Shown here one piece after another: positions 8,140-33,177 of a stretch of DNA of 64,000 bases. The notes under the pieces are model-generated. The model was given only the letters and a program-made list of their open reading frames with translations. It ran no database searches and was not told where the DNA came from. Position 1 is the stretch's first letter. Each line of letters starts with the position of its first letter. The translations under genes were made by a program, and so were the position numbers. This DNA comes from an uncultured Gammaproteobacteria bacterium (GTDB taxonomy: Bacteria; Patescibacteriota; Microgenomatia; Levybacterales; UBA12049), in NCBI GenBank assembly GCA_964637955.1, contig CAZWXQ010000001.1, forward strand, positions 223,447 through 287,446. Direction: 5' to 3'.

Positions 8140-8185
8140 GTCCTATAGTTTATTTTCGCCTCAAAATCTGATATAATCTCCTGTT

Positions 8186-8878
8186 ATGTCACCTGATTTT
8201 AGAGAAGCAAAGCTTCCGACAGTTACACTTGAGAGGGCATTGATTGAAACATCAAGTAGTCCAAAAAAGATTTATCGTGGATTAAGTGCAATCGATGTAG
8301 CAAATTTTCAACCTGACATAGATGAAGTTATCAATTACTCATTAATTCATCCTAGTAGACATGAAGCAGCAAAACTAATTTATCTAGATCCTGAAGGAAG
8401 AATCTCATTTTCCAAGTTAATTGAAGGAGGAGAAAATTTTGTAGATACACCAGATCCTGATTTGCGGAGATCAATACTTCTGGGAAGAAGAACAATTGCA
8501 AGAGTGCACAGTCATCCTTTGGGTACAGATTTTAGCTTGAGTGATCTAGCTAGTTTATTGACTAAACCATCATTGCCTGCATCAAATACTGCGAAGTTAT
8601 TAGTAACGCCAGATAGAATATCAATCGCATTTCGAGGTGAAAATACTCCAGGGTTTAGTTTTTATGAAGCGAAGAGATTAGCAGAGAGATTAGATTTATT
8701 ATTAGAAAGATTGATTCAGGAATATAGGACTCCTGAGATAACACAAGAAGAATTTGTTCGACTTGTTTTGGGAATTCACAGATCAGCAATTGAGTCAATG
8801 ATTAGTCAATTCGATATCCAAATTTTTGAAGGCTATAGAAGTGAAAGACTTTTACAAAGAGTTCGTGCAAAAGCATAA
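8186..8878 (+). CDS. hypothetical protein with a JAMM/MPN-like H-x-H...S..D motif; sits inside a repeat-bounded insertion
   Basis: 230 aa. VHSHPLGTDFSLSD resembles the JAMM metal-binding motif (spacing off by one), with Glu upstream. TATAATCTCCTGTT precedes the ATG (leaderless design). Confidence 0.4.
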   Translation: MSPDFREAKLPTVTLERALIETSSSPKKIYRGLSAIDVANFQPDIDEVINYSLIHPSRHEAAKLIYLDPEGRISFSKLIEGGENFVDTPDPDLRRSILLGRRTIARVHSHPLGTDFSLSDLASLLTKPSLPASNTAKLLVTPDRISIAFRGENTPGFSFYEAKRLAERLDLLLERLIQEYRTPEITQEEFVRLVLGIHRSAIESMISQFDIQIFEGYRSERLLQRVRAKA

Positions 8879-8886
8879 AAGAACAA

Positions 8887-8928
8887 GTTGGTCATCATTT
8901 CGGTTTAACTGATGAGCAGATGAAGTAA
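8887..8928 (+). repeat. direct repeat, copy 2: orphan copy of the zincin gene 3' end including the stop codon
   Basis: Encodes VGHHFGLTDEQMK* against the native IGHHFGLTDEQMK*. Lies just downstream of inserted ORF 8186-8878. Confidence 0.85.
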
Positions 8929-8929
8929 T

Positions 8930-9178
8930 TTAGATTGTTTCATCTGCTATTTCTTCGTATTCGGTTACAGTTTTTTTAACCCTGCCTCCTTTTGTGCCTA
9001 TTAATCCAGATATGTTGTTGTATCTGTCTGAATTGTTGTATTTAACAATAGCCCAGAAACCAAGAACCATAACTGCAATTATAACCACAGCCCAGAAAAA
9101 CTCCGTTGGAGTTATTCCCAAAGCAGTTGAAATAGAATCCGTTTGCGGAATAGTATTTACTGATTGTGCAAGTTTCAT
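8930..9178 (-). CDS. small membrane protein
   Basis: 82 aa with one central TM helix. Strong SD (AAGGAGGTG) 5 nt upstream on the minus strand. Confidence 0.45.
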   Translation of the reverse strand: MKLAQSVNTIPQTDSISTALGITPTEFFWAVVIIAVMVLGFWAIVKYNNSDRYNNISGLIGTKGGRVKKTVTEYEEIADETI

Positions 9179-9605: not shown

Positions 9606-12600
9606 ATGCCGAAAGCTGATATTAAAGACAACAAGCAAATAGCACGAGAGGACTGGGGGAAAAAGTTTCCTGTACTTCCAGAACTTGATCTTTTGACCAT
9701 TCAGAAAGAATCATATGAATGGTTTGAAGAGCACGGAATTGGTGAAGTATTGCAAGAAATTTCTCCTATCGAGGATTTCACAGGTAAAAACTGGACTCTC
9801 ACTCTTAAAGATTACAGAATTGGTAAGGCTACGAATACGCCTCAACTGTGTTTAATTAAAGGCCTTACATTCGATGCTCCTCTTTACGCAAAAGCAACAC
9901 TCCTAAATAAAAAAACTGAAGCAGAAATAGATCAAGAAGTTTTCCTTGGAGATATTCCAAAGATGACAGAGCGAGGAACATTCATCGTTAATGGAATTGA
10001 AAGAGCAATCGTAAACCAGCTTGTTCGATCACCTGGAGTATTCTTTACAGCAACTCAGGACGTAGTTACAGGTCAAACTCTTTATACAGCTGAAATTAGA
10101 CCAGTTCATGGATCATGGCTCGAATTTACAACCACAAGATATGAAACAATTACTGTAAAGATTGATCGCAGAAGAAAGTTTTTAGCTTCAACTTTCCTTA
10201 GAGCTATTGGTGTTTCAGATAATGATTTAATAAGAGAAAAATTCAGAGATGTAGAAGCTGATGGCAAAACTAGTTATATAAATAATACTCTTACAAAGGA
10301 TGAAACAGGTTCACAAAATGAAGCTCTTATCGAAATCTTTAAAAAGATGCATCCAGGAGAACCAGTAGTTATTGATAAGGTTAAAGAAAATTTCTTTGGA
10401 ATGTTCTTTAACAATAGAAGATATGATCTCGGAGATGTCGGACGTTATAAAATTAACAAGAAATTAAAAGATATTCCTGGATTTAATCCAACTGAAGAGA
10501 GAATTCTTACTATTGAAGATATCATCGCTACCATCTCCTTCCTTATTGAGCTATCAAAAGGTAGAGACGGCGTTGATGATATTGATTCACTAGCAAACAG
10601 AAGAGTTCGAAGAGTTGGAGAATTAGTTGCTTCTACTGCATTCAGAGTTGGAGTGCTTAGGCTTGAAAGAAGTATTAAGGAAAGAATGTCACTTATTACT
10701 CCAGAAGTTCCTGTCACAGTCGCAGGACTTATTAATGCCAGACCTATTATGGCCTCAATTAATGAATTCTTCAGAACCTCTCAGCTCTCAACCATCCTCG
10801 ATCAAACAAATCCACTTTCAGAAATTGATAATCTTAACCGCTTAACTGTGATGGGAACAGGTGGAATTAGTCGAGAAAGAGCAGCATTCTCTATTCGTGA
10901 TATTAACTCCAGTCAGTACGGTAGGATTTGTCCTATCAGAAGTCCCGAGGGTCCAAACATTGGTTTGGTTACATATTTAGCTTTATATACCAAAGTAAAT
11001 AAGTATGGATTCTTGGAATCTCCATATAGAAAAGTTGAGCACAATGGTAAGGTTTCAAGAGCAACTGATCAAATTGAATATATGGCTGCAGATGATGAGC
11101 GCGAGCATTATGTAACTCATTCTGGAGTATTAAATGACGATCAAACAATAACTCATGAAAGAGTTCCTGCTAGATATAAGGGTGAATTTATTGAGATTGA
11201 TAAAGAAAAGATTGAATATATCGATGTTGTTCCTCGACAAGTTGTAGGAACAGCAGCATCTCTTATTCCTTTTGTTTCGCATGATGAAGCAAATAGAGCG
11301 CTCATGGGAACTCATATGCAGAGTCAGGCAGTTCCACTTGTGCAGCCACATTCTCCTATTGTTGGAACTGGTATGGAAAAAACAGTCTCACAGGTTATGG
11401 GAAGAGTATTTTATGCACCTGAAGATGGAGAGATTGAATATGCAGATGGAGATAGAGTAGATTTCGTAGGAAAAAGTGGAAAAGTTTCATATAAAGTAGA
11501 TTCATTCCAAAGAACTTCTCAAGCTACTGCATACACTCAAAGAACAATGGTAGAGAGTGGACAAAAAGTTAAAAAAGGAGACCTTCTCGTTGATGGTCCT
11601 TCATCTGAAAATGGTGAATTAGCACTTGGACAAAATTTACTTATCGCATATGCATCATATGATGGACTTGGATACGAAGACGCTATCGTTATTTCAGATA
11701 AATTAGTAAAAAAAGATGTTTTATCTTCAATTCATATTGAAAAATATGAAGCAGCAGTTGTTGAAACTAAATTAGGACCTGAAGAAACAACAAGAGACAT
11801 TCCAAATGTAGGAGAAGATCAGCTTTTGAACTTAGATGAAGACGGAATCGTAGTAGTTTCATCTGAAGTTGGACCTGGAGATATTCTTGTTGGAAAGATT
11901 GCACCAAAGGGTGAAACTGAACTTACTGCAGAAGAAAGACTTCTTCGCGCTATTTTCGGAGAGCAAGCAAGGGAAGTTAGGGATACATCGCTTAGAATGC
12001 CAAATGGAGAAAGAGGAACAGTTATTTCAGTTCAAATTCTTGATCGCAAAAAAGGTGATGAGCTAGAGCCAGGATGTTTGCGCAAAATTATCGTTGAAGT
12101 AGCGCAGTTCAGACATGTTGTAGTAGGAGATAAGCTCGCTGGAAGACATGGAAACAAAGGAGTTATTTCTAGAATCGTTCCAGAAGTTGACATGCCATAT
12201 CTCGAAGATGGAACTCCAGTTGATATTATCATTTCACCTATTTCAGTACTTGCTCGTATGAACCTTGGTCAGCTTCTTGAAGCTCATCTTGGTTGGGCAG
12301 CGCTAACTCAGAATAAAAAAGTAGGAGTCCCAGTATTCGAAGAAGTTCATGAATCAAACATTGTAAATGAGCTTAAGAGTGCAGGACTTCCTGAAAATGG
12401 AAAAACCAAGCTTTATGATGCTAGAACTGGAGAACTTTATGAGAACTCAGTTGTGGTTGGAGTAAGTTACATAATGAAGCTTATACACATGGTTGAGGAT
12501 AAGACTCATGCAAGAAGTACAGGACCATATTCATTAGTTACTCAGCAGCCACTCGGTGGAAAAGCACAAATGGGAGGCCAGCGTCTTGGGGAGATGGAGG

Positions 12601-13016
12601 TTTGGGCATTAGAATCTCACAGAGCACGTTATACTCTTCAGGAAATGTTAACAATTAAATCAGATGATGTAGTAGGTCGTGCAAAAGCTTTTGAGGCTAT
12701 TGTTAAGGGAACAAGTATCCCAACGCCAAAAGTTCCTGAGTCATTTAAGGTTCTTATTAAAGAATTACAAGCTCTGGGTTTAAATGTTGTACCAATGGGT
12801 GCTACAATTACACCTGAACCTACGATGGTTGAGCCACTAGCGGATGCAAAAATTGATGAAAAAGTAGAACAAGATGCAAAAGAAATGGAGCAAGAGCTAG
12901 GTGGAGAATCAAATGAAATGACAAATGAAGGCGGAGTTGAAGATGTTCCATCTCCAGAAGATTTGAAAGATGAAACATTAGACGAAGCAGAGGAGGCATT
13001 AAATGGACAAGAATAA
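9606..13016 (+). CDS. rpoB: DNA-directed RNA polymerase subunit beta
   Basis: 1136 aa with conserved beta-subunit blocks throughout (e.g. GDKLAGRHGNKGVIS, rifampicin-region motifs). Confidence 0.97.
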   Translation: MPKADIKDNKQIAREDWGKKFPVLPELDLLTIQKESYEWFEEHGIGEVLQEISPIEDFTGKNWTLTLKDYRIGKATNTPQLCLIKGLTFDAPLYAKATLLNKKTEAEIDQEVFLGDIPKMTERGTFIVNGIERAIVNQLVRSPGVFFTATQDVVTGQTLYTAEIRPVHGSWLEFTTTRYETITVKIDRRRKFLASTFLRAIGVSDNDLIREKFRDVEADGKTSYINNTLTKDETGSQNEALIEIFKKMHPGEPVVIDKVKENFFGMFFNNRRYDLGDVGRYKINKKLKDIPGFNPTEERILTIEDIIATISFLIELSKGRDGVDDIDSLANRRVRRVGELVASTAFRVGVLRLERSIKERMSLITPEVPVTVAGLINARPIMASINEFFRTSQLSTILDQTNPLSEIDNLNRLTVMGTGGISRERAAFSIRDINSSQYGRICPIRSPEGPNIGLVTYLALYTKVNKYGFLESPYRKVEHNGKVSRATDQIEYMAADDEREHYVTHSGVLNDDQTITHERVPARYKGEFIEIDKEKIEYIDVVPRQVVGTAASLIPFVSHDEANRALMGTHMQSQAVPLVQPHSPIVGTGMEKTVSQVMGRVFYAPEDGEIEYADGDRVDFVGKSGKVSYKVDSFQRTSQATAYTQRTMVESGQKVKKGDLLVDGPSSENGELALGQNLLIAYASYDGLGYEDAIVISDKLVKKDVLSSIHIEKYEAAVVETKLGPEETTRDIPNVGEDQLLNLDEDGIVVVSSEVGPGDILVGKIAPKGETELTAEERLLRAIFGEQAREVRDTSLRMPNGERGTVISVQILDRKKGDELEPGCLRKIIVEVAQFRHVVVGDKLAGRHGNKGVISRIVPEVDMPYLEDGTPVDIIISPISVLARMNLGQLLEAHLGWAALTQNKKVGVPVFEEVHESNIVNELKSAGLPENGKTKLYDARTGELYENSVVVGVSYIMKLIHMVEDKTHARSTGPYSLVTQQPLGGKAQMGGQRLGEMEVWALESHRARYTLQEMLTIKSDDVVGRAKAFEAIVKGTSIPTPKVPESFKVLIKELQALGLNVVPMGATITPEPTMVEPLADAKIDEKVEQDAKEMEQELGGESNEMTNEGGVEDVPSPEDLKDETLDEAEEALNGQE

Positions 13017-16000
13017 AAAAATGAAAGATATTAGTATATTGGATTTCCAAAGTCTTAAGATTTTATTGGCTGGAGAAAAAGATATTTTAGAGTGGAGTTA
13101 TGGCGAGGTTACAAAGCCTGAGACTATTAACTACAGAACTCTTAGACCAGAAAAAGATGGACTTTTCGACGAAAGAATATTTGGTCCTACAAAGGATTGG
13201 GAATGTTATTGTGGAAAATATAAGAGAATCCGCTACAGAGGAATAATCTGCGATAAATGTGGAGTAGAAGTTACACTTTCTCGTGTTAGACGTGAAAGAA
13301 TGGGTCATATTGAGCTCGCAGCACCAGTTGCACACGTTTGGTACTTCAAGGGTTCAAGTTCATCTTTGTCTTTAATCTTAGACATGAGTCAAAAAGACCT
13401 CGAATCTGTAATTTATTATGCATCTTATTTAGTTACCGGAATTGAAGATGATAAGAAAAAGAAAGCTATTGAAGACTTTGCAGTAAATATTGAAGATAGA
13501 AAAAATAAGCTTAAGAAGGATTCTGAAACTGAAGAAGCAGACATTAATAATGAAATTGACGAAAAGTTAAAGGAAGCAGCAAAAGCAAATGAAGAACAAA
13601 AGGGACTCATGGAACAGGAATTAGAGCTTCAAAGAAAACAAAGATTAGCTAGAATTTCAGATAGAGTAGCCGCTGAAAGTAAGAAAATTGATGAAATTTC
13701 TGATGCTCTTATGACTCTCGTTAAGTCATTAAAGCCAGGTTCAGTTCTTTCTGAAGATGAATACTTTAAAGTTTTAGAATATGATATCCCAGTTTTCTTC
13801 ACATTTAAGACTGGCGCAGAAGGACTTCTAGAGTTAATTCAAAAAGTAAATATTGACGATTTAATCGTTGATTTAAGAAAAGAAGTAGAAAAATCTAAAG
13901 GACAGAAATATCTAAAACTCATTAAGCGCTTGAGATTACTTGAAGTTATAAGAAAAGCTGGAGTTGCTCCAAAAGACATGGTTTATAAAGCTCTCCCAGT
14001 TATTCCACCAGATCTTAGACCTATGGTTCAGTTATCAGGAGGAAGATTTGCGACTTCAGATTTGAACGATTTGTATCGACGCGTAATTAATAGAAATAAT
14101 CGCTTGAAGCATTTGATGTCTCTTGGTGCTCCTGAAATCATTCTTAGAAATGAAAAAAGAATGCTTCAAGAATCAGTTGATTCACTTATTGACGCATCTC
14201 AGCGTGGAACACAAGTAGTTGCTTCACCGTTAAGATCACTTTCAGATATGCTTAGAGGAAAACAAGGTAGATTTAGGCAGAATCTTCTTGGAAAAAGAGT
14301 TGATTATTCAGGAAGGTCAGTTATCGTTGTAGGACCTGATTTGAAATTATCTGAGTGCGGACTTCCAAAAGAGATGGCGCTTGAAATGTTTAAGCCATTT
14401 GTTCTCCGTGAAGTAATTGTTCGTGGATTTGCTCCAAACATTAAGTCAGCAAAAAGATTTATTGAGAAGAGACCACCAGAGGTTTTTGATATTCTTGAAG
14501 AAATCACAAAAAATCATCCAGTTCTTCTTAACCGCGCTCCTACCTTGCATAAGTTAGGTATTCAAGCTTTCTATCCAAAGCTTATCGAAGGAGCTGCGAT
14601 CCAATTACATCCTTGTGTTTGTAAAGGTTATAATGCGGATTTTGATGGAGATCAGATGGCTGTTCATATTCCTTTGTCAGATAATGCACAAAAAGAAGCT
14701 ATTGAGCTCATGCTTCCGCGCGAAAATCTCTTAAAGCCTGCTGATGGAGCTCCAATCACGCTTCCAGATAAGGAAATGGCAATCGGAATTTTTTATCTCA
14801 CAACTATGGATGAAGCCTTGAGGCTTAGTGAAGAGGATCAAAAATATTTCAGCAATATAAATGATGCATTGCTCGGATATTCAATGAAAATAGTTGATCT
14901 CAGAGAGCCAATTAAAGTAAAAATTGCTGATGAAGTTTTAGAAACAACTATTGGCAGACTCATGCTTAATGAGCATTTGCCAGAGAAGCTTGGTTTCATT
15001 AATGAACCTATAAAAGCATCTGGAATTAAGAAGCTCGTAACTCGCGCAATGGGTGTTGCAAATTCACTAGAGGTTGAAGAGCTTATCGATAGAGTAAAAA
15101 CTCTTGGATTCTACGGCTCAACAGTTTCAGGAATCTCAGTTTCTGTTTTTGATACAGCGCTCGTTGCCGAAAAGCAGGAAATTATTGACGGCGCAGAAGG
15201 AAAAATTAGCGAAATCGATACCGAATATCAAAAAGGTTTAATCACAAACGAAGAGAGAAAAAGACTTTCAAATGATGTTTGGCTTAAAACTACAGAAAAA
15301 ATCGCTGATATGACTTGGGATCTTCTAACTCCAGGAAATGTGATTAGAACTATTATCGATTCTGAAGGAGCTCGTGCAGGAAAAGAACAGCTCAAGCAAC
15401 TTTCTGCTATGAGAGGTCTTATTCTTGATCCGCTTGGAAAGATCGTAGAACTTCCTATTAAATCTAATTTCCGTGAAGGTTTATCTATTTTTGAATACGT
15501 AGCTTCAGCTAGAGGATCTAGAAAAGGTTTGACTGACTCAGCACTTAAGACAGCAAACGCAGGATATTTGACTAGAAGACTAGTAGATGTTTCTCATGAC
15601 ATGATCGTGCGCGAAGAAGATTGTGGAACTAAAAAAGGAGTAACTGTAGTAGCAGTAGATCCTGAAAGAACAGCATCATTTGCAGATAGATTGGTAGGAA
15701 GAACAGCAGTAGAGGCGATAATTGGAAAAGATAAGAAGACTATCGTAAAAGCTAATGAAGAGATTTCAGAAGAGCAAGCACTTGAGATCGTTAGAAATGA
15801 TATTGAAGAAGCAGTAGTTAGATCAGCAATCACTTGTGAACTCAGATATGGAATTTGTGCAGCATGTTATGGCTGGGATTTCTCAGTAAAGAGAAGAGTT
15901 GCTCTTGGAGTACCAGTAGGAGTTGTTGCAGCGCAATCGATTGGAGAGCCTGGAACTCAGCTTACCATGCGTGTTAGACATTTCGGAGGAGTTGTTATGA

Positions 16001-16785
16001 GTGACGTGACTCAAGGTTTGCCACGTGTTGAAGAATTATTCGAAATGAGAACACCTAAAGCCCTTTCACCAATCGCAGAGCTTACAGGAAAACTTACTAT
16101 TGAAACAAATGAAGATGGATATCTTCTTAAAGTTACAACTCATAGAAAGCCTGCAGAAGAAAGAGAATATTTTGTTCCACTAGCTTCAAACTTAAACGTA
16201 GAAGATGGTCAGGAAGTTAAAATGGGAACTCAATTTGCACAGGGATACTTAGATCCTAAAGAAGTTCTTAAGATTACAGGACTCTTTGATGCACAGAAGT
16301 ATGTAATAACAGAAGCTCAAAAGGTTTATGAATCACAGGGAATCCCAATTAATGATAAGCATTTTGAAGTAATTCTTAGAAAAATGAGTGATAAAGTAGT
16401 AGTCGAAACAGTTGGAGATACTACGCTCATTCCTGGAGACTTTATTACAAGAACCAGATTTGAGGAAATGAATGCTGAGATTCTAAGTCAGGGTGGAGAG
16501 CCAGCAACTGCAAGACAAACTATTCTTGGAGTAACTAAATCATCTCTATTCTCAGATTCATGGCTTTCAGCTGCATCATTCCAGGAAACAACAAAAGTTC
16601 TCACTGAAGCATCTCTTGAAGGCGCAGAAGACAAGCTTATCGGACTCAAAGAAAATGTTATTATTGGACGACTTATTCCAGTTGCAGGAATTGAACCTGT
16701 TGAAGAAGCAAACAATTTTGTGGAAGTTTCTGCCCCTGCTACACAAGAATCGCCAGTTGAAGCACCAGCTTCAGATGCGGTATAA
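13003..16785 (+). CDS. rpoC: DNA-directed RNA polymerase subunit beta'
   Basis: 1260 aa with the NADFDGDQMAVH catalytic motif and an N-terminal zinc-binding region. Overlaps rpoB by 14 nt. Confidence 0.97.
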   Translation: MDKNKKMKDISILDFQSLKILLAGEKDILEWSYGEVTKPETINYRTLRPEKDGLFDERIFGPTKDWECYCGKYKRIRYRGIICDKCGVEVTLSRVRRERMGHIELAAPVAHVWYFKGSSSSLSLILDMSQKDLESVIYYASYLVTGIEDDKKKKAIEDFAVNIEDRKNKLKKDSETEEADINNEIDEKLKEAAKANEEQKGLMEQELELQRKQRLARISDRVAAESKKIDEISDALMTLVKSLKPGSVLSEDEYFKVLEYDIPVFFTFKTGAEGLLELIQKVNIDDLIVDLRKEVEKSKGQKYLKLIKRLRLLEVIRKAGVAPKDMVYKALPVIPPDLRPMVQLSGGRFATSDLNDLYRRVINRNNRLKHLMSLGAPEIILRNEKRMLQESVDSLIDASQRGTQVVASPLRSLSDMLRGKQGRFRQNLLGKRVDYSGRSVIVVGPDLKLSECGLPKEMALEMFKPFVLREVIVRGFAPNIKSAKRFIEKRPPEVFDILEEITKNHPVLLNRAPTLHKLGIQAFYPKLIEGAAIQLHPCVCKGYNADFDGDQMAVHIPLSDNAQKEAIELMLPRENLLKPADGAPITLPDKEMAIGIFYLTTMDEALRLSEEDQKYFSNINDALLGYSMKIVDLREPIKVKIADEVLETTIGRLMLNEHLPEKLGFINEPIKASGIKKLVTRAMGVANSLEVEELIDRVKTLGFYGSTVSGISVSVFDTALVAEKQEIIDGAEGKISEIDTEYQKGLITNEERKRLSNDVWLKTTEKIADMTWDLLTPGNVIRTIIDSEGARAGKEQLKQLSAMRGLILDPLGKIVELPIKSNFREGLSIFEYVASARGSRKGLTDSALKTANAGYLTRRLVDVSHDMIVREEDCGTKKGVTVVAVDPERTASFADRLVGRTAVEAIIGKDKKTIVKANEEISEEQALEIVRNDIEEAVVRSAITCELRYGICAACYGWDFSVKRRVALGVPVGVVAAQSIGEPGTQLTMRVRHFGGVVMSDVTQGLPRVEELFEMRTPKALSPIAELTGKLTIETNEDGYLLKVTTHRKPAEEREYFVPLASNLNVEDGQEVKMGTQFAQGYLDPKEVLKITGLFDAQKYVITEAQKVYESQGIPINDKHFEVILRKMSDKVVVETVGDTTLIPGDFITRTRFEEMNAEILSQGGEPATARQTILGVTKSSLFSDSWLSAASFQETTKVLTEASLEGAEDKLIGLKENVIIGRLIPVAGIEPVEEANNFVEVSAPATQESPVEAPASDAV

Positions 16786-16836
16786 TACCTATTCAGTAAC
16801 TAGTCATTAGAAGCTAGTTGCTGCTAACTAAAGAAT

Positions 16837-17271
16837 ATGCCAACATTATCACAATTAACAAAAAAGGGTAGAACAAAGAAAATAAAGAAGGTTAGAGTAA
16901 CTGGTCTTAGGAAAGCTTACAATGCTAAGGACAGAATCTATACTGAATATAATTCTCCTCAAAAAAGAGGCGTAGTGACGTTGGTTAAAACAATGACTCC
17001 TAGAAAGCCTAATTCAGCACTTAGAAAAGTAGCTCGTGTTAAGCTCTCAAATAGAACTGAGGTTACAGCATATATCATGGGAGAAGGTCATTCTCTTTCT
17101 GAGCACGGAATCGTTTTAGTTAGAGGTGGAAGAACAAAAGATTTGGCAGGAGTAAAATATCACATAGTTCGAGGAAAATTCGATCTCGCAGGAGTTGAAG
17201 GTAGAAAATCGAGTAGAAGTAAATATGGAGCAAAGAAAGGACAAGGAGGAGCTAAAGCTGCTGCAGCCTAA
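16837..17271 (+). CDS. rpsL: 30S ribosomal protein S12 (with a C-terminal Lys/Ala/Gly extension)
   Basis: [15 protein letters not shown]...VRGG motifs. About 20 aa of extra C-terminal tail. Confidence 0.95.
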
Positions 17272-17277
17272 TAATAT

Positions 17278-17751
17278 ATGAGACATTCTAAAGTAAGTAA
17301 AAGAAGAGACATACAAGAAGATGCAGTTTATAATAGTATTATAGTCAGTAAGCTCATAAATAATATTATGCGAGATGGTAAAAAAACCGTTGCTGCAAAT
17401 GTAGTTTATGACACTTTTGATATCTTGGCTAAAAAAGAAGACCCTCTTTCTCTTTTTGAAAAAGCTATTCAGAATGTAGGACCTAAGACTGAAATTAAGG
17501 CTAGAAGAGTAGGTGGAGCATCCTATCAAATCCCTATCGAAGTAAGAGGAGAAAGAAGAACTGCGCTAGCTTTAAGATGGATTATTGAGGCATCTCGTGC
17601 AAAATCAAACAAAGATTTCCATACTTTTCCAGAAAAACTCGCCGATGAAATCATGTCAGCATCAAATAATGAAGGAGCAGCTATTAAAAAGAGAGATAAT
17701 GTACATAGAATGGCAGACGCAAACAAAGCTTTCTCTCACTTCAGAATATAA
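17278..17751 (+). CDS. rpsG: 30S ribosomal protein S7
   Basis: ASYQIPIEVRGERRTALALRWII motif. Its last 42 bp are duplicated at 18196-18238. Confidence 0.95.
   Translation: MRHSKVSKRRDIQEDAVYNSIIVSKLINNIMRDGKKTVAANVVYDTFDILAKKEDPLSLFEKAIQNVGPKTEIKARRVGGASYQIPIEVRGERRTALALRWIIEASRAKSNKDFHTFPEKLADEIMSASNNEGAAIKKRDNVHRMADANKAFSHFRI
17710..17751 (+). repeat. direct repeat, copy 1: native 3' end of rpsG
   Basis: Matches 18196-18238 with only synonymous differences; both copies encode (M/L)ADANKAFSHFRI*. Confidence 0.85.
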
Positions 17752-17770
17752 TTCTCCCACCCGTTTAATT

Positions 17771-18136
17771 ATGGATCGTTTAGAAGATAGAAATCGAGCC
17801 TCTGAAATAGAATTTAAGAAAAGATCTCATTTTGCTCTTGTTAAGACTACTCTAGTCGCAGTCAAAAGTATGGAGGGTTTTGAAGGGTCTGCAAATATGA
17901 AAGATGCAGTGTTAAAGAGGGCATTATATTATGCTACTTTAGCTTTGCCTTCTCATGTTTCATATCTTGATTTAGGGGATGGAGCTGTGTTTGAAAGAAC
18001 ACCAGATCAGCTGAAAAATATTCCTGAAGAACAACGACAAGGATGGGATTTAAAAAAACTTGATTTGTATGCTGCGGAATTGGCTCAAAGTTTAAATATG
18101 GATTGGACGCCATTTTATCCATCAAATCTTAATTAA
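17771..18136 (+). CDS. hypothetical protein inside the insertion between rpsG and its orphan 3'-end copy
   Basis: 121 aa starting at the first ATG after the rpsG stop. The 17585 start in the ORF track overlaps rpsG out of frame and is rejected. Confidence 0.4.
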   Translation: MDRLEDRNRASEIEFKKRSHFALVKTTLVAVKSMEGFEGSANMKDAVLKRALYYATLALPSHVSYLDLGDGAVFERTPDQLKNIPEEQRQGWDLKKLDLYAAELAQSLNMDWTPFYPSNLN

Positions 18137-18195
18137 GAATTATTAAAAATCTAAAGTATTTAATTAGGTAAATAATAGACTGAAAATAATCGTAA

Positions 18196-18238
18196 ATTGG
18201 CAGACGCTAACAAGGCCTTCTCCCACTTCAGAATCTAA
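18196..18238 (+). repeat. direct repeat, copy 2: orphan synonymous copy of the rpsG 3' end including the stop codon
   Basis: Encodes LADANKAFSHFRI* with 6 synonymous substitutions relative to 17710-17751. Confidence 0.85.
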
Positions 18239-18283
18239 GTTTGACTTTTGTTCAATATCTTTTCTCGTTTAAGTTAATTTCAA

Positions 18284-18832
18284 TTAAGATTTAGGACCTC
18301 TTCTTTTTAGGAGTTTAAGCAGGGGAAGATAGGGATTTAGGGCGTCGGAATTTTGCATGATTTGTCTTTTTGCATCACTACCAACTTTACATTTAAGCAT
18401 TCCCATCAAGGCTTGTCCAACCTGCTCAGAGGCGTTGAAAGCTCTGTCTGTAAGTATGTCTCCATGATGTCCATCAAATAGATCCTTGAGCATGGTTGTG
18501 TATAAATTTAAAATTTCGCTCAGACCTTCTCCTGGGGGATTTGGTGTATACCAAGAGTAGCAGTTATTCCATAAGCCAATTACTCTTTCGCCTCTTGATG
18601 ATGGACTCAGATCTGAGAGATTGGTCAGGTCTACACGATCCTCTTTATATGTGCCATCTAGTCCACCTTCGTATGCCATGCTTGCTCCTAAATTAAATTG
18701 TGTAGCAAGAGTAGTATTTAAAACTTTTACGATTAAAGGATGCTCTGGAATAGGAGAGATGGTAGTCGCCATAACTCTTTGATTGCCTGAATCTATAGTA
18801 TATATGCCCGGTCTTCCTTCATATTCAATCAT
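18284..18832 (-). CDS. hypothetical protein
   Basis: 182 aa. Minus-strand TTGTTT-N17-TATAAT sits 8 nt before the ATG. Moderately acidic, GC-richer than the core genes. Confidence 0.4.
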   Translation of the reverse strand: MIEYEGRPGIYTIDSGNQRVMATTISPIPEHPLIVKVLNTTLATQFNLGASMAYEGGLDGTYKEDRVDLTNLSDLSPSSRGERVIGLWNNCYSWYTPNPPGEGLSEILNLYTTMLKDLFDGHHGDILTDRAFNASEQVGQALMGMLKCKVGSDAKRQIMQNSDALNPYLPLLKLLKRRGPKS

Positions 18833-18940
18833 AATCAGGTATTATAGTCACTTAATTACTCATAAACAAGCCTTAACTATCAAATTATTCATAATCCTAT
18901 AGTTGAAGTTTGTTTTTAATTTCTATATAATTCCTCAGTT

Positions 18941-19879
18941 ATGATTGAAGCTCTAGAAAGAGAATTGGTTCCTCCTGAAAAACCTAGATTTTGGTGGGGA
19001 GAAGACTTAGTTTCTGCAGGATACGAGCAAACAGTTTTTGGTTCAAGTGAAACAACTGAAATTGCTGTTTTTCCTCAGGGGGACAGTTTTCCGACTGATG
19101 GAAAAATCCTTGGAACATCAATTGCGACTAAAAGCAGAATTGCACAATGGGGTGGCGAGGTGGTTCAGAGTGGAGTTGTAAAAATTGCGCAGGCCAGCGA
19201 AGAATCACAGACGCTCCAATATCAAAAAGAAGCTAGGGTTCTAATGAAAAGTCATACTGGAAATAATCTTATAATTCCTCCGAATACGCCATTATTTGGT
19301 TTGTATTCTCAAGGACCAGCTATAGTTGGAGAAGAGTTATATGAAATGGTGGGAAGCGGTAAGGACATTGATATTGAGGGAAAGAGAGGAAGGGCATGGG
19401 ATTTTGTATATGAAAATCCATATAAGAAAAAAGTTGAAGAAATTATCGGTATCGCAAATGAAATCGATAATACTAATAGATGGTATATTCCAAGAGGAAT
19501 AGATTTGAACCTAAAAGATTTGACAAATGCAGGTAGGGATTATAGAAAAGTAGTAAACCGTCCATATGTCGATGTCAAAAGAGGTGAGGCTACAGATATT
19601 TGGTTTGGTGAGCTTCGTGGACTTAAGTTGAGCCGCAGGGTGGCAATTGAAATCGCTAAGCCAATTGTGCCAAAGCTAGCTGTGGCTGCAGATGTTAAAA
19701 AAATGGAAGAGCAAAGAATTTATCCGAATGGAAGACATATCGGAGCAAGGCTTCTTCATCCAGGGTCAGGATTAAATAATCCTGAAGGCTGGCCAATACG
19801 AGTTGAAATTGATACAAGAGGTTCAGTTCAAAAACCAGGAGCTGTTATTTTCCGTGTTATGCGTGCAGAGACTATTTAG
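18941..19879 (+). CDS. hypothetical protein
   Basis: 312 aa, divergent from 18284-18832. TATAAT lies 9 nt before the ATG. Confidence 0.4.
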   Translation: MIEALERELVPPEKPRFWWGEDLVSAGYEQTVFGSSETTEIAVFPQGDSFPTDGKILGTSIATKSRIAQWGGEVVQSGVVKIAQASEESQTLQYQKEARVLMKSHTGNNLIIPPNTPLFGLYSQGPAIVGEELYEMVGSGKDIDIEGKRGRAWDFVYENPYKKKVEEIIGIANEIDNTNRWYIPRGIDLNLKDLTNAGRDYRKVVNRPYVDVKRGEATDIWFGELRGLKLSRRVAIEIAKPIVPKLAVAADVKKMEEQRIYPNGRHIGARLLHPGSGLNNPEGWPIRVEIDTRGSVQKPGAVIFRVMRAETI

Positions 19880-19882
19880 CAA

Positions 19883-20116
19883 TTGACAATTCATGATTTA
19901 AGACATATATTCGGATTTGTGGAAAAATTTACTAAGACTGTTTCAGAAGCTATATTAAGTCTTCCACCTTCCCCTTTTATTGCTGGAGAACAAATGGCTG
20001 CGCTTGTAAAAATTAAAAAGCCGAAGGATCCAAAAGTTTTACGTGTAGATTCTGAAGTTGAATTAAGTTCTGTAACAATTGTTGTACCTAAAAAGGCGCA
20101 GCTACAGGGAATTTAA
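19883..20116 (+). CDS. doubtful small ORF (needs a TTG start)
   Basis: 77 aa. Its only in-frame start at this position is TTG. Confidence 0.2.
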   Translation: MTIHDLRHIFGFVEKFTKTVSEAILSLPPSPFIAGEQMAALVKIKKPKDPKVLRVDSEVELSSVTIVVPKKAQLQGI

Positions 20117-20665
20117 ATGAAAAGTTTTTATGCGAAAGATCGAGGCCAATGGCGTGATTGGTTAGCCGCAAATCATGATAAGGAGGCTGAAATTTGGCTA
20201 ATCTATTATAAAATAGCCTCTGGAAAACCATTCGTGAGCTATAATGACGCAGTTGAAGAAGCGATTTGTTTTGGGTGGATTGACTCCACTCAGCGCCCAA
20301 GAGATAGCGAAAGCTATATGCAGAGATTTAGTCCACGAAAAGATTCTAAAAATTGGTCTGAATTAAATAAAGAAAGATCAAGAAAATTAATTAAGAATAA
20401 GCAAATGACTCCGTTTGGTTTAAAAATGTTAGAAGGAATTGATCTTTCATATCAGCCAATTGTTTTATCATCCGAAATTGAAGCTGCTTTAAAATCAGAT
20501 TCAGAAGTATGGACAAATTGGAATAAATTTGATCATGTATATCAAAGGCTTCGTATAGGCTATATTTTAGAAGGTAAACGTCAGGGAAAAGAAGAGTTCG
20601 ATCGACGACTTAATTCATTTATTAAAGCTACTAAGAAAAATAAAAAGATCGGGACAATCATTTAG
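20117..20665 (+). CDS. YdeI/OmpD-associated (OmdA) family protein
   Basis: Pattern W..WL..NH.....IW......G....SY.DAVEEAICFGWIDS......QRFSPRK..S.WS is typical of PF13376. Confidence 0.6.
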   Translation: MKSFYAKDRGQWRDWLAANHDKEAEIWLIYYKIASGKPFVSYNDAVEEAICFGWIDSTQRPRDSESYMQRFSPRKDSKNWSELNKERSRKLIKNKQMTPFGLKMLEGIDLSYQPIVLSSEIEAALKSDSEVWTNWNKFDHVYQRLRIGYILEGKRQGKEEFDRRLNSFIKATKKNKKIGTII

Positions 20666-20792
20666 GTTGTTTTAGCTCGAAAGGTCTAGTATTTAAAGAC
20701 TGGGAAGGACTTATGACAGGTGTATATATAAAAACTTTATTTTTTGCCTTTATCTATTGACAAAGAATTTCATTAGATCTACTTTATAATTA

Positions 20793-22295
20793 ATGAGGAA
20801 ATTAATTTTTTCTGCTTTTTCGATTATTTTTCTAGCTTTAGTTTTTGTTCCTGATAGCTTGGCTGCAACTACTTCAACCCTTCTTCCAACAGCTGATGGA
20901 GCATACTCTCAATTCACACCAAAAAGCGGATCAGTACATTACACTCAGGTAGACGAGGCATCATGTAATGGAAATACTGATCATAATAGAACTACAGTAG
21001 TTGGATCAAGAGACTCTTATATTGTTTCACTGTCTTCGATACCAAATAATTCTACGATAACTCAAATATCATTAACTCCTTGCGCGTCAAGAAATTCAAC
21101 TGGTGGTGTAAATCCTCAATTAGATTTATTTTATCGATTAAATGGTGTTAATAGTGCAGATGCGGGCGCATATTCACTTACCGGCACAGCTCCGATTGAT
21201 TTATTATCAACAAATTTTTCAGGGCTTTCGATTGTAAAAACTGTTTCAACAACTCTTGAAGTAGGAGCAGTCTTAACTTCAAGTACAAAGGGGGTAAAGC
21301 TAGGTAGATTAGCGACTGTTATAACTTATACTCTTCCCTCACCAACTGCAACTACAAGTAGCGCTACGAATGTAATGACTAGCGGATCATCTTCATCAGC
21401 AACTCTTAATTCTATAGTCAATCCAAATGGAGTAAGTACTAGTGTATTTTATCGTTATGGTTTATCAAACGTAGAATGTAGTTCTTTGACTTCATCAACA
21501 AGCGCTGTTGCCATTGGATCTGGAACTTCTAGTGTTAGTCCTAATGCAACCAGCGTAGGGTCTCTTAACCCCGCTACCACATATTATTTCTGTGCTGTTG
21601 GGACGAGTGCAAGTGGAACTTCATATGGAAATGTACTTTCGTTCGTTACTCCTGGTTCAGCTCCGACAGTTACGACTAATACTGCAACAGATTTATCTAC
21701 GAACTCAGCGATTCTTAATTCGACCGTTAATCCAAACGGAGTCTCGACTTCAGTGAGTTACAAATATGGTACTGTAAATACAACTTGTGATTTACTTTCC
21801 TCATCGACAAGCGCAACTGCTATTGGATCAGGAACATCTGATTTAACGCCTAATGCGAAAAGTGTTGGGTCACTAAGTCCTTCTACTGCATATTATTTCT
21901 GTGCAGTGGGAACTAGCTCAAGTGGCACAGCATACGGTAATGTAATTTTATTTACAACTTCTGCTCTTCCAATTGCTCCGACTGTTACCACAAATGATGC
22001 TACCGAGTTGGCTGTAGTTGGTTCATCTGCTTCGGCAAGTTTAAATTCAACAGTTAACCCTAACGGCACTAGTACAACTGTTAGATATAGATATGGTACT
22101 ATAAATACTGCTTGCAGTGCTTTGGGTAATCAGACCTCAGTAGTCAATATTGGTTCAGGAAGTCTAGATGTTTCTCCCAACACTAGGTCTATTGGTTTTT
22201 TGCCAAAAAATACAACTTTCTATTTCTGTGCAGTAGCAGCCAATTCTGTTGGAACTACATACGGAAATGTCCTCTCCTTTACAACTCTCCCATAA
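20793..22295 (+). CDS. secreted protein with an N-terminal signal peptide and three tandem Fn3-like repeats
   Basis: Signal peptide FLALVFVPDSLAA. Three ~100-aa repeats share NPNG.ST...Y.YG...C...IGSG......YYFCAV.....GT.YGNV. Likely cell-surface protein. Confidence 0.6.
   Translation: MRKLIFSAFSIIFLALVFVPDSLAATTSTLLPTADGAYSQFTPKSGSVHYTQVDEASCNGNTDHNRTTVVGSRDSYIVSLSSIPNNSTITQISLTPCASRNSTGGVNPQLDLFYRLNGVNSADAGAYSLTGTAPIDLLSTNFSGLSIVKTVSTTLEVGAVLTSSTKGVKLGRLATVITYTLPSPTATTSSATNVMTSGSSSSATLNSIVNPNGVSTSVFYRYGLSNVECSSLTSSTSAVAIGSGTSSVSPNATSVGSLNPATTYYFCAVGTSASGTSYGNVLSFVTPGSAPTVTTNTATDLSTNSAILNSTVNPNGVSTSVSYKYGTVNTTCDLLSSSTSATAIGSGTSDLTPNAKSVGSLSPSTAYYFCAVGTSSSGTAYGNVILFTTSALPIAPTVTTNDATELAVVGSSASASLNSTVNPNGTSTTVRYRYGTINTACSALGNQTSVVNIGSGSLDVSPNTRSIGFLPKNTTFYFCAVAANSVGTTYGNVLSFTTLP
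21340..22295 (+). repeat. three tandem ~310-bp coding repeats (Fn3-like modules)
   Basis: Protein-level periodicity is clear. DNA copies have diverged (estimated 60-70% identity by eye). Confidence 0.6.
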
Positions 22296-22345
22296 ATTAA
22301 AACTTATAGTTTGATTTTTGATTTCCTAGCTTGTAAAATATAGCT

Positions 22346-22885
22346 ATGACTGTAGATACAAGACCTGATCAAATGAATTTTGGTCTTCTGGATCCCGGAA
22401 ATATCGATCTTGATCCTGAAGTAATTGAGCATAGGCGTATTCAAGTTATTATTAATGGTGCAGTAATGGGACTTGATAATCCCAATATTCCAAATAGACT
22501 TTTGATGGATTCAGATCCATTGCCTACTATCACATATGATGAGATTAAAGATTATGGTGCATTTCTTCATGAAACAGAGGGTGGAAATAAGATTTTAGTT
22601 GTGACGCAAAATCCAGACGCATTAAAATCTCCAGAAGTAGTGCTCACAGAATTAAGAGAAAGAGCGGCAAGAAGGATAAATGGCATTGGAAGACTTACTT
22701 TTTTAAGAGCAGGAGAGGTGATGCCTCAGCTAGAGCGAGATAAGGGTAATGCTGGGACTTTGTTAAAAGAAACGAAAAGATTTGGTAGGGATAGTGGACA
22801 TGAGTATTTGGGCACGGTTCAAATTATGCAGGCTGCAGCTGGAGAAATGCCTTTTGTTCCTTACTTACCCCCTGTACAAAAATAA
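22346..22885 (+). CDS. hypothetical protein
   Basis: 179 aa acidic ORF; the last gene of the rpsG|fusA island. Confidence 0.4.
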   Translation: MTVDTRPDQMNFGLLDPGNIDLDPEVIEHRRIQVIINGAVMGLDNPNIPNRLLMDSDPLPTITYDEIKDYGAFLHETEGGNKILVVTQNPDALKSPEVVLTELRERAARRINGIGRLTFLRAGEVMPQLERDKGNAGTLLKETKRFGRDSGHEYLGTVQIMQAAAGEMPFVPYLPPVQK

Positions 22886-22970
22886 ATAAACTTAATCTTC
22901 TAGATTCTAAGAAAAATTTATGGTATACTCATTTAGCTTCCAATTGGGAAGCTTTTTTAAAGATTAAACT

Positions 22971-25106
22971 ATGGCAGATTCAGCAAACAGACATTTTGAT
23001 TTAGCAAAAATCCGAAACATCGGAATTATCGCGCACATTGATGCGGGAAAGACTACTACTACCGAGCGCATTCTTTACTACACAGGAAAAACCCATAAGA
23101 TTGGTGATATCGACGAAGGAAATACAGTCATGGACTGGATGAAGGAAGAAAGAGAGCGCGGAATTACTATCGTTTCTGCTGCTACTACAGCATTTTGGTC
23201 TCCAACAGATGGTTCTCAAAAAGGAATTGAACACAGATTTAATATCATCGATACTCCTGGTCACGTAGACTTTACAGCTGAAGTTGAGCGTTCGCTTCGT
23301 GTTCTCGATGGTGGCATTACAGTTCTTGATGCAGAAGAAGGAGTACAGTCTCAGTCAGAAACTGTTTGGAGACAGGCAGACAAATATAAAGTTCCAAGAC
23401 TTTGTTTCGTTAATAAAATGGATAAGCTTGGAGCAGATTTCTTAGCTACAGTTAAGTCTATTGAAGATAGACTTGGCGCTAACACAGCTATCATGGTACT
23501 TCCAATTGGTTCTGAGCAAACATACGTTGGAAATGTAGATCTTCTTACAAGAAAAGCTATCAGATGGGGCGGAGATGAACTTGGTGCAACTTACGAAGTA
23601 AATGATGACATTCCTTCGGAAATGAAAGATCAAGTTGAAGAATATAGAAAAAAACTTATTGAGAAAATTTCAGAGACAGATGACACTCTTCTTGAAAAAT
23701 ATTTAAACGGCGAAGAATTTAGCGTAGAAGAGCTTAGAAAAGCACTTCGTGCAGCAGTTATTGCTTATAAATTAGTACCTATTTATGCAGGAACTTCTCT
23801 TAGAAACAAAGGCGTACAGCCACTTCTTGATGCTGTTGTAGAATATCTTCCTAGCCCAGTAGATCTAAAAGAAGTTGTAGGATTAAATCCAAAAACAGAA
23901 GCAGAAGAGAAAAGACTTCTTGTTGAAGATGCTCCTCTATCAGGATTAGCATTTAAAATTCAGAATGATCCACACGTAGGAAAGCTTACATTTTATAGAG
24001 TTTATTCAGGAAAAATCCAGGCTGGAAGCTATATTTATAATTCAACAAAAGATGTAAAAGAGCGTGTTGGACGACTTCTTTTAATGCATTCAAATCAAAG
24101 AGAAGAAATCCAAGAAGCATATGCAGGTGAAATTGTAGCTGTAGTTGGACTTAAAGATACTATTACCGGAGACACGCTTTGTGATGAAGCAAATCCAATT
24201 ATTCTTGAAAAAATTTCGTTCCCAGAGCCAATTATTTCACTTGCAATTGAGCCAAAAACTAAATCAGATCAGGAAAAACTAGGTTTAGCTTTGAAGAGGC
24301 TTATGGATGAAGATCCTACATTCCAAGTTAAAACTAACCATGAGACAGGTCAGACTATTATCTCAGGTGTTGGAGAATTACAGCTCGAGGTTAAAGTAAA
24401 TACTATGAAAAATGATTTCGGAGTAGAAGCAAACGTTGGAGCTCCTCAAGTAGCTTATAAAGAAACAGTAAAAACTGAAGCAACAGGAGAAGGAAAATAT
24501 ATCAGACAGTCCGGAGGACGCGGTCAATATGGTCATTGCTGGCTCAGAATTAAACCAAAACCAAGAGGAGAAGGAAATGAATTTATAGACGCTATCAAGG
24601 GTGGAGCTATTCCTGCAGAATTCGTTAAAGCTATCGAAAAAGGTATCAAAGAATCAGAGGAAAATGGAATTTACCTTGGATATCCAGTAGTAGATATGAG
24701 CGTAGAAGTTTATGATGGATCATTCCATGAGGTCGATTCTAGTGAAATGTCATTTAAAATCGCAGCAAGTAAAGCTCTTCAAGCAGCTGCACAGAACGCA
24801 GGACTTACACTTCTTGAGCCTATTATGAAAGTAGAAGTTACAACTCCAAGTGAATTCTTGGGGGATGTTATCGGAGATCTTTCAAGTAAGAGAGCTCAGA
24901 TTTCAGGCACTGAGGACAAAGGAAAAGCGACTATCATTAAAGCATTAGTTCCATTATCAGAATTATCTGGTTATGCGACAGTTCTAAGAAGTATGACACA
25001 AGGAAGAGCAACTCCGTACATGGAAGCATCACATTATGATGAAGTTCCTGCTAGTATTCAGGCTCAAATGAAAGCCGCATCTACCTTCACTGGAAGAGTT
25101 GAATAA
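22971..25106 (+). CDS. fusA: elongation factor G
   Basis: GTPase motifs AHIDAGKTT, DTPGHVDF, NKMD, plus conserved domains II-V. Confidence 0.97.
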   Translation: MADSANRHFDLAKIRNIGIIAHIDAGKTTTTERILYYTGKTHKIGDIDEGNTVMDWMKEERERGITIVSAATTAFWSPTDGSQKGIEHRFNIIDTPGHVDFTAEVERSLRVLDGGITVLDAEEGVQSQSETVWRQADKYKVPRLCFVNKMDKLGADFLATVKSIEDRLGANTAIMVLPIGSEQTYVGNVDLLTRKAIRWGGDELGATYEVNDDIPSEMKDQVEEYRKKLIEKISETDDTLLEKYLNGEEFSVEELRKALRAAVIAYKLVPIYAGTSLRNKGVQPLLDAVVEYLPSPVDLKEVVGLNPKTEAEEKRLLVEDAPLSGLAFKIQNDPHVGKLTFYRVYSGKIQAGSYIYNSTKDVKERVGRLLLMHSNQREEIQEAYAGEIVAVVGLKDTITGDTLCDEANPIILEKISFPEPIISLAIEPKTKSDQEKLGLALKRLMDEDPTFQVKTNHETGQTIISGVGELQLEVKVNTMKNDFGVEANVGAPQVAYKETVKTEATGEGKYIRQSGGRGQYGHCWLRIKPKPRGEGNEFIDAIKGGAIPAEFVKAIEKGIKESEENGIYLGYPVVDMSVEVYDGSFHEVDSSEMSFKIAASKALQAAAQNAGLTLLEPIMKVEVTTPSEFLGDVIGDLSSKRAQISGTEDKGKATIIKALVPLSELSGYATVLRSMTQGRATPYMEASHYDEVPASIQAQMKAASTFTGRVE

Positions 25107-33174: not shown

Positions 33175-33177
33175 TTT

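Follow-up and report, generated by a model that had tools for sequence, protein, structure and literature searches.

The locus described here raises the question of how the 3' end of rpsG, the gene for ribosomal protein S7, came to stand a second time downstream of the intact gene, with an orphan gene between the two copies. It lies in a window of 64,000 nucleotides (the whole stretch of DNA analysed, to which all positions refer) from contig CAZWXQ010000001.1 of assembly GCA_964637955.1. The organism is a patescibacterium, and its nearest named S7 proteins are those of Levybacteria. The second copy, at 18197-18238 and referred to below as the relic, is read as a scar left by recombination where rpsG borders a hypervariable region of gene cassettes, in a clade of Patescibacteria (candidate phyla radiation, CPR) near Levybacteria, a reading that is given about an even chance of being correct.

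A second rpsG end that diverged as coding sequence

The repeat and the DNA immediately before its second copy consist of the following features.

17278-17751, plus strand: rpsG (ribosomal protein S7, 157 aa), intact; Pfam Ribosomal_S7, E = 1.9e-56
17710-17751, plus strand: functional rpsG 3' end (copy A), ending in MADANKAFSHFRI and the stop; this peptide is conserved in S7 proteins of the clade
18137-18196, plus strand: AT-rich spacer from the small gene ORF121 to the relic, with five in-frame stops
18197-18238, plus strand: relic rpsG 3' end (copy B), LADANKAFSHFRI and a stop; 36/42 identity to copy A, outside any open reading frame (ORF)

Copy A reads ATGGCAGACGCAAACAAAGCTTTCTCTCACTTCAGAATATAA and copy B reads TTGGCAGACGCTAACAAGGCCTTCTCCCACTTCAGAATCTAA. 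The repeat had been reported in a first-pass annotation of this DNA and is confirmed, with 36 of 42 positions identical, although that annotation placed the start of the second copy at 18196 instead of 18197 and counted seven differences. There are six, namely five synonymous changes at third codon positions and ATG to TTG, which replaces methionine by leucine. All five internal differences are thus synonymous, and in a random-substitution simulation five substitutions keep the peptide in a fraction of 1.5e-4 of the trials. The two copies have diverged as coding sequence, as the annotation had claimed for the second one. Its argument that a purely local duplication would look otherwise also stands, since divergence of the coding type rules out a simple local duplication followed by neutral decay. 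A neutral relic, identical to its source at birth, would be expected to show about 40% synonymous differences; the two cases found in the window together have seven of seven internal ones (an estimate, p ~0.002).

The closest match of copy B is the functional rpsG tail of the related lineage L085 (38/42). Weak similarity between the two copies reaches 65 nt in the repeat search (17687-17751 against 18174-18238, 77%), and indels are needed to match them upstream of the TGG at the start of the relic. When the last 48 nt of each of 76 window genes were compared with their own downstream 3.5 kb, rpsG scored 57 and a Zincin_1 metallopeptidase-like gene scored 72, the highest value; the median of the scan was 20 and its 95th percentile 28. 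No further strong case of a gene-end relic was found in 209 loci scanned, and the spacer 18137-18196 shows no significant RNA structure.

The same rpsG/relic structure is present in two Logan contigs, one identical over 6041 of 6041 nt (SRR14271336) and one with a single mismatch in 2058 nt (SRR14271332). The longest exact run common to copies A and B is 11 nt, below any assembler k-mer. A whole-gene tandem duplication of rpsG was considered in view of the 487-nt spacing, which is close to the gene length, and of ORF121 being in frame with the relic. It was rejected because identity at the 487-nt offset equals that at other in-frame offsets and BLASTP gave no match.

The variable interval between rpsG and fusA

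Upstream of rpsG lie rpoB (9606-13016), rpoC (13003-16785) and rpsL (16837-17271). Downstream, the interval up to fusA contains the following.

17771-18136, plus strand: ORF121, small-protein gene of unassigned function, at this site only in this genome, supported by homologs and an AlphaFold2 (AF2) model
18284-18832, minus strand: ORF182, convergent orphan, the second part of the DNA absent from empty sites
18892-18940, plus strand: ancestral post-rpsG flank, consisting of TAA TCCTATAGTTGAAG, 17 nt and TATAAT; promoter of ORF312
18941-22885, plus strand: remainder of the variable spacer, with ORF312, ORF77, a DUF8412/OmdA gene (20117-20665), the repeat-rich ORF500 and ORF179
22971-25106, plus strand: fusA (EF-G), the conserved right flank; Pfam EF-G domains, 82% nucleotide identity to fusA of L003

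In the window fusA lies 5.2 kb downstream of rpsG, and the order between them is ORF121, relic, convergent ORF182, ORF312, ORF77, DUF8412/OmdA gene, ORF500 and ORF179. The region holds no tRNAs, and positions 16500-23200 gave no Rfam match. About 15 relatives were examined, and in each of them rpsG and fusA are separated by 0.9-5 kb with differing genes. These two genes bound the variable region in L003, L004, L083, L088, L092, L215 and L220 as well as in the window, and the whole-gene cassettes between them differ in every lineage examined, as the following contents illustrate.

L083: ORF296, ORF95, DUF8412, ORF179
L088: ORF80, DUF8412
L092: ORF411, DUF8412, ORF284, ORF170
L215: HAD hydrolase, DUF8412, ORF181, ORF291
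L220: two DUF8412 genes
L085 (contig ends before fusA): ORF163 and a reverse gene

Some cassettes have counterparts elsewhere in the clade. ORF312 (18941-19879, with its flank 18892-19879) is a homolog of ORF296 in L003 and L083, with 30% identity to the L003 protein (E = 1e-18) and 44% to that of L194. ORF179 is 45% identical to a gene of L083, homologs of ORF500 are present in the L215 and L092 spacers, and the gene at 20117-20665 has a Pfam match to OmdA. Three internal repeats, diverged and about 309-327 nt long, are found within ORF500 itself (20793-22295), and its L215 and L092 homologs differ in repeat number.

The first-pass annotation had taken rpsG-fusA adjacency to be nearly universal and the junction to be an unusual insertion target. 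Because the genes of the interval differ in every relative examined, the junction is a gene-turnover hotspot in this clade and no unusual target. The insert-free alleles for which the annotation advised a search do exist. In L003 and L083 the rpsG stop codon is followed directly by TCCTATAGTTGAAG, TATAAT and the ORF296 gene, and the equivalent position in the window is 18892. Compared with these empty sites, the extra DNA of the window runs from 17752 to 18891 (1.14 kb) and comprises ORF121, the relic and the minus-strand ORF182. The relic is therefore in the middle of the extra DNA, and not at the edge of a discrete 445-bp insert as first proposed.

The gene order of the str and S10 clusters is broken repeatedly beyond this interval too, over 22971-46453. 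About 10 kb of unrelated genes, among them those for a decarboxylase, an EamA protein, a hydrolase, an LPG synthase and a histidine kinase, lie between fusA and tuf (35176-36357), and about 7 kb lie between rpsJ (36407-36715) and rplC (43688-44614).

Relics in related lineages

The relic is not tied to the ORF121 insert, as had been supposed, since six other lineages have a relic behind spacers of 20-80 nt. In five of them (L093, L094, L194, L097 and L220) a partial second rpsG end is found 49-104 nt past the real stop codon, without ORF121; in the sixth, L088, the relic is decayed and frameshifted. The metagenome pattern scan used here returned mostly S7 genes of Bacteroidota, and seven loci of the clade were usable. 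Every rpsG relic apparently opens with the same TGG, at a distance of 41 nt from the end of the stop codon, and the relic-bearing lineages are scattered on the S7 tree.

The coding-type divergence recurs in these lineages. Functional end and relic differ by 9 nt in seven codons in L093, all synonymous and including serine AGT/TCC and arginine AGA/CGA (AGR/CGN), and by 7 nt in L094, 7 nt in L097 and 5 nt in L194, in each case with no amino-acid change. In the random-substitution simulation these four genomes and the window give p values from 1.5e-4 to <5e-6. L220 fits the synonymous-only pattern less cleanly, with six of seven differing nucleotides synonymous and the seventh giving valine in the functional copy against the clade-consensus isoleucine in the relic. 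Differences from relic to relic across lineages are all synonymous as well.

The relics also appear to belong with the DNA that follows them. Relic plus flank resembles functional tail plus flank of a relic-free relative in the pairs L097/L169 and L194/L003, and that of the window resembles L085 and L220; the L194 relic is identical to the functional tail of L197 at 21 of 21 positions. Among L094, L194 and L088 the functional tail and spacer are 85-90% identical, whereas the DNA past the relic is 51-63% identical and then gives way to different genes. The modules up- and downstream of the relic show different relationships among L094, L194, L088 and L093.

A short GC-rich inverted repeat lies between rpsG stop and relic in L088 (1113-1139), L094 (881-907), L194, L097, L220 and L093. 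Its 3' arm is the start of the relic, and its folding energy is not significant; L094 and L088 differ in it by one paired change from C-G to T-A, and in L097 its loop is expanded by about 57 nt. A dispersed element resembling miniature inverted-repeat transposable elements or repetitive extragenic palindromes was rejected, as the inverted repeat occurs at this site only in the loci compared and its folding energies are ordinary. S7, a universal ribosomal protein, is itself polymorphic in length: many close relatives (P0007-P0018, P0033, P0047 and others) have an insertion of 4-14 residues after '...ILAK', and their S7 has 161-171 aa where that of the window has 157.

A second case in the same window

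The gene with the highest score in the tail scan is arranged in the same manner.

7786-8139, plus strand: Zincin_1 metallopeptidase-like gene; Pfam PF06262, E = 1.3e-29; its last 41 nt, 8099-8139, are copy A2
8141-8176, plus strand: promoter-like flank of ORF230, with TCCTATAG and TATAAT
8186-8878, plus strand: ORF230, orphan gene; no Pfam match, singleton cluster
8888-8928, plus strand: 3' end of Zincin_1 as a relic (copy B2); 39 of 41 positions agree, the two changes being synonymous
8930-9178, minus strand: convergent 82-aa membrane-like ORF, whose stop is 1 nt from that of the relic

The longest identical run of these copies is 28 nt. An empty site is again known, in L201, where nothing separates Zincin_1 from the rpoB promoter region and ORF230, relic and convergent ORF are missing. 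Behind each of the two window relics comes the 3' end of a convergent gene, and at both loci the synonymous sites with G/C in the relic have A/T in its functional counterpart. Comparison of the two window inserts and their ends revealed no common motif, and the ends have no inverted repeat in common. The Zincin_1 case shows that the process is general in this genome. ORF230 carries HSHPLGTDFSLSD, which by eye resembles a JAB/MPN metalloprotease motif, with no Pfam match.

ORF121, ORF182 and the DNA around the relic

Two short promoter-like elements flank this part of the locus.

17747-17752, plus strand: TATAAT hexamer over the rpsG stop codon, a possible -10 element of ORF121, read from the sequence
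18241-18246, plus strand: TTGACT, an apparent -35 remnant; an 8-nt match and weak evidence

Remote homologs with conserved motifs and a very confident AF2 model indicate that ORF121 is a real gene, belonging to a sparse family. A word-indexed search of 5.8 billion proteins returned only the protein itself, while phmmer found 16 remote homologs of 72-122 aa, the best with 37% identity (E = 9e-19), and one weak match in a 1382-aa protein. Members of the family have about 110-120 aa and share the motifs LP..V..LDLGDG and R(Q/E)TWDL.R.DQYAA. The alignment of homologs favours the ATG at 17771 over a 145-aa call, and the AF2 model reaches a mean predicted local distance difference test (pLDDT) score of 95.6 from an alignment of only 16 sequences. 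The protein has no Pfam, PHROG or PDB counterpart. Assignment of a function from structure was abandoned, as the matches were to generic helical bundles and that to FusB (E = 2.8) is not meaningful. The ORF and the TATAAT credited to it by the first-pass annotation are both present; the hexamer lacks a good -35 element and lies 18 nt before the ATG, against the usual 6-10 nt in this genome.

Many genes of the window, for instance those at 260, 5521, 7321, 7786, 8186, 18941, 33810, 34178, 34723, 37829, 39163 and 39799, have a TATAAT only 6-10 nt ahead of the start codon and then a C/T-rich stretch. This arrangement suggests that leaderless or very short-leader mRNAs may be widespread in this organism.

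For ORF182, the search of 5.8e9 proteins likewise gave the self match only, and neither Pfam nor PHROG gave a match. A viral origin of the inserted genes was considered and rejected, as INPHARED gave no match to ORF121, ORF182 or ORF230, IMG/VR none to ORF121 or ORF230, and PHROGs none to ORF121 or ORF182.

The stop of copy B is followed by G TTTGACTT, that of rpsG in L085 by TTTCCTCTTTGACTT and the L220 relic by TAATTGACTTCC. The match is of 8 nt and weak, and TTGACT at 18241-18246 would on this basis be an apparent remnant of the -35 box found after the rpsG stop or relic in relatives. The flank at 18892-18940 is promoter-like (10/12 matches) and homologous to the DNA just after the rpsG stop in L003 and L083 and after the relic in L194. 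Within it, the 10-mer TCCTATAGTT has just two exact sites in the window, at 8141-8150 and 18895-18904; both stand right after a stop codon and upstream of the -35 element of an inserted or variable gene (ORF230 and ORF312), and the motif is also present in L003, L083 and L194. A third, decayed relic just before the 18892 flank, collinear by eye, was rejected as not significant in three tests (p 0.2-0.7).

Mobility genes and known types of element

Both inserts of the window are flanked by direct repeats of the 3' end of the target gene (17710-17751/18197-18238 and 8099-8139/8888-8928). No integrase, transposase or tyrosine/serine recombinase was detected among the 43 window ORFs scanned, and ORF121, ORF182 and ORF230 have no recombinase match in Pfam or PHROG. 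The lack of an integrase, homing-endonuclease motif and inverted repeats stated by the first-pass annotation therefore holds for the scans run. Its suggestion to look for ORF121 and the insert at other gene ends had a negative outcome, as no cargo recurs at another site and ORF121, ORF182 and ORF230 were found in this genome only in the searches run.

A homing endonuclease, intron or intein would be expected to show an endonuclease domain (LAGLIDADG, HNH, GIY-YIG and the like) or a ribozyme structure; Pfam and PHROG gave no match in the insert and Rfam none in 16500-23200, and the modelled fold of ORF121 is a helical bundle without a nuclease match. For a transposon or insertion sequence there is no transposase and there are no terminal inverted repeats, and the duplication is of 41 nt and diverged at synonymous sites only. 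For an integron cassette there is no inverted repeat at the insert ends and no integrase in the window.

Proposed recombination at a cassette hotspot

The explanation that fits these observations best is a recombination scar on the rpsG side of a gene-turnover hotspot: the flanks are conserved, the cassettes between them differ, mobility genes are missing, the modules are mosaic and the relics vary together with the module downstream of them. Among the possibilities raised at the outset, capture from a related strain, facilitated by homology, stays the best class of mechanism. From this we infer a recombination mechanism, a direction of transfer and a refreshing of the relic, which would operate as follows. 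DNA of related lineages would repeatedly be incorporated by recombination anchored in the conserved flanks. Where the left junction fell inside the rpsG 3' end and resolved uncleanly, only products with a complete rpsG would survive, arising either from a short-homology single crossover of a circle or from a join in which one end is homologous and the second illegitimate. The result would be a functional and a truncated rpsG end in tandem, with the import between or behind them, and, as the two ends would come from different rpsG alleles, they would differ at synonymous sites only. The relic could then act as the left homology arm for later swaps of the downstream cassette, which would keep relics fresh and their 5' boundary fixed. 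In the window, ORF121 lies between functional end and relic, and ORF182 would have been inserted just behind the relic.

Random joins would predict neither the fixed 41-nt boundary nor the cassette-free spacers of the relatives. Both suggest one founding event, possibly a template-switch duplication, after which the relic would have been reused as a homology arm.

Several points weigh against the hotspot scar. All rpsG relics start at the same TGG and the Zincin_1 relic is also of 40-41 nt, while joins made at random would be expected to vary in length; the model requires a single founding event with reuse, plus a coincidence for the Zincin_1 locus. The spacers of the relatives (20-80 nt) contain no cassette, and the founding event may have been a local complex duplication and not an import. 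The relics of L220, L194, L088 and the window share codon choices with their own functional copy, which hints at a possible origin in situ. Finally, no donor with ORF121 beside rpsG was found, and the three cargo genes are unique to this genome in the searches run.

The closest described parallels are the minimal mobile elements (MMEs) and core-gene hotspots. MMEs of Neisseria are defined, as quoted in PMC3082526, as gene cassettes between conserved genes, and hotspots without mobile elements show recombination at their flanking core genes (Oliveira et al. 2017; PMC5635113). Natural competence has been demonstrated in Saccharibacteria, one CPR group (PMC10633639). The locus resembles these systems in its conserved flanks rpsG and fusA, its differing whole-gene cassettes and its lack of mobility genes. 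It differs in the truncated end of a flanking gene that is left in the region and recurs across lineages, relics being absent from MME descriptions, and in its position inside the otherwise conserved str operon.

In homology-facilitated illegitimate recombination, homology anchors the incoming DNA at one end, and the opposite end is joined illegitimately (PMC3240628). Foreign DNA is likewise added beside a conserved gene without a recombinase, but varied microhomology joins would be expected, whereas the boundary here is at about 41 nt in many lineages and in a second gene, and no donor has been identified. In Campbell-type insertion-duplication, a circle integrates via short homology, reversibly by recombination between the repeats. 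The layout of gene, repeat, insert, repeat and downstream DNA is the same, but this route needs circular intermediates and recombination on about 41 nt at 86-95% identity.

Alternative explanations

The main rival, which we consider rather unlikely, is a complex duplication of the last 41 nt in situ, possibly by template switch, together with nucleotide constraint on the relic. A template switch could yield both the inverted repeat of the relatives and the gene-end repeat, with ORF121 inserted between the copies later. The relic would serve its neighbour, as DNA upstream of a promoter, as a translation start or as the 3' untranslated region of a convergent gene, and the freed coding copy would drift to A/T at synonymous sites. 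The common 5' boundary of all rpsG relics and its coincidence with the 3' arm of the inverted repeat speak for this origin, as does the paired change between the inverted repeats of L094 and L088. Relics keep G/C-ending codons (TTC TCC CAC TTC in four of six) where functional copies have A/T-ending ones, and the same holds for Zincin_1. In the relatives no gap is left between the relic and either the -35 box or the start codon of the gene behind it, in L169 and L216 the following gene opens 6 nt past the real rpsG stop, and the L220 relic has AGT CAT in common with its own functional copy. However, synonymous-only differences between relics, including serine AGT against TCC, are unexpected for a non-coding element. 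The window relics face the 3' ends of convergent genes, so that there is no promoter to serve, and no significant RNA structure is predicted on either strand. The L088 relic has been allowed to frameshift and decay, and the relic co-varies with the downstream and not the upstream module.

Site-specific integration is judged improbable. According to this explanation, the copies would be the attL and attR sites of small integrase-less cassettes resembling cis-mobilizable elements (CIMEs), moved in trans by a tyrosine recombinase encoded elsewhere and carrying a replacement gene end. Streptococcal integrative and conjugative elements (ICEs), integrative and mobilizable elements (IMEs) and CIMEs have repeats of 12-54 bp at the 3' ends of rplL, rpsI, rpmG, guaA and other genes (PMC4701971). 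The direct repeats of the exact gene 3' end, the intact gene and the repeat length of 41-42 nt agree with these, and the fixed 5' boundary across lineages, the start of both window repeats at TGG after AGA(A/T) and the existence of empty sites would be explained. Unlike those elements, however, neither the inserts nor the scanned window ORFs hold an integrase. The inserts are of 0.02-0.75 kb with at most one ORF, the relatives having only 20-80 nt between the copies, and the cargoes are unrelated and unique, none recurring at another site or genome. The repeats have diverged by 5-14%, at synonymous sites only, and appear to lack a long identical core, uninterrupted identity reaching 11 nt at rpsG and 28 nt at Zincin_1. 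All that the two targets seem to have in common is AGAWTGG at the boundary, and neither a motif nor an inverted repeat is common to the insert ends.

An artefact, in which two rpsG alleles of co-existing strains were stitched together, is very unlikely: the genome is metagenome-assembled and both copies resemble allelic variants of one sequence, but the structure recurs in two Logan assemblies from different runs and another assembler, the 11-nt shared run is too short to mislead a de Bruijn graph, the 445 nt of unrelated sequence between the copies encode a protein predicted to be well folded, and relics of this kind are present in at least six more lineages, recovered from unrelated samples. 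Translation of the relic, whether independently as a small ORF or from rpsG by readthrough, frameshifting or hopping, and its maintenance by selection on the protein, would account for the protein-level conservation, the TTG that opens the window relic and the in-frame L093 relic with its TTG past the stop, but has next to no probability and is excluded because frames are inconsistent (+1 in the window, L094, L088 and L220, 0 in L093, +2 in L194 and L097) and start codons missing: the L194 relic has an upstream in-frame stop and no start codon, 445 nt and five in-frame stops intervene in the window, and no ribosome-binding site is visible.

Other observations in the window

The ribosomal proteins L22 and S17 (named by sequence) end in similar K/E-rich extensions at 47145-47192 and 48872-48919, ...SNDKGENK and ...SKDKKENK before the stop, which are also alike at the DNA level (tail-scan score 38). 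Two paralogous genes without a Pfam match, each of about 204 aa, stand in tandem at 32560-33789, with 78% identity between their 5' ends.

Meaning for gene gain in the CPR

CPR genomes are tiny, densely packed and rich in lineage-specific orphan genes, and to our knowledge it is poorly documented how such genes enter without breaking their neighbours. This locus shows that genes turn over rapidly within the conserved str operon of one clade, and that new ones can slot in while an essential gene stays complete, its last 13 codons being duplicated or replaced. The gene-end relic would mark a recombination hotspot, and two features of such relics stand out, their 40-41-nt length and their failure to decay. 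Displaced gene ends persist and recur, and they account for the odd overlapping ORFs that gene callers report at these loci. They are easily searched for and may serve as markers to date and trace cassette exchange.

A bolder possibility, and something of a long shot, is an undescribed CPR route that would add single orphan genes about 41 nt before a resident stop codon, bringing or generating a recoded replacement end. It would leave the host gene and its packed neighbours intact, with the displaced end as a reusable landing pad, and would act via a trans-acting recombinase or a defined template-switch process. If it were true, the two 40-41-nt cases in 64 kb and the fixed boundary would reflect a mechanism and not a coincidence. 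If the 41-nt length is mechanistic, it would point to a new insertion process.

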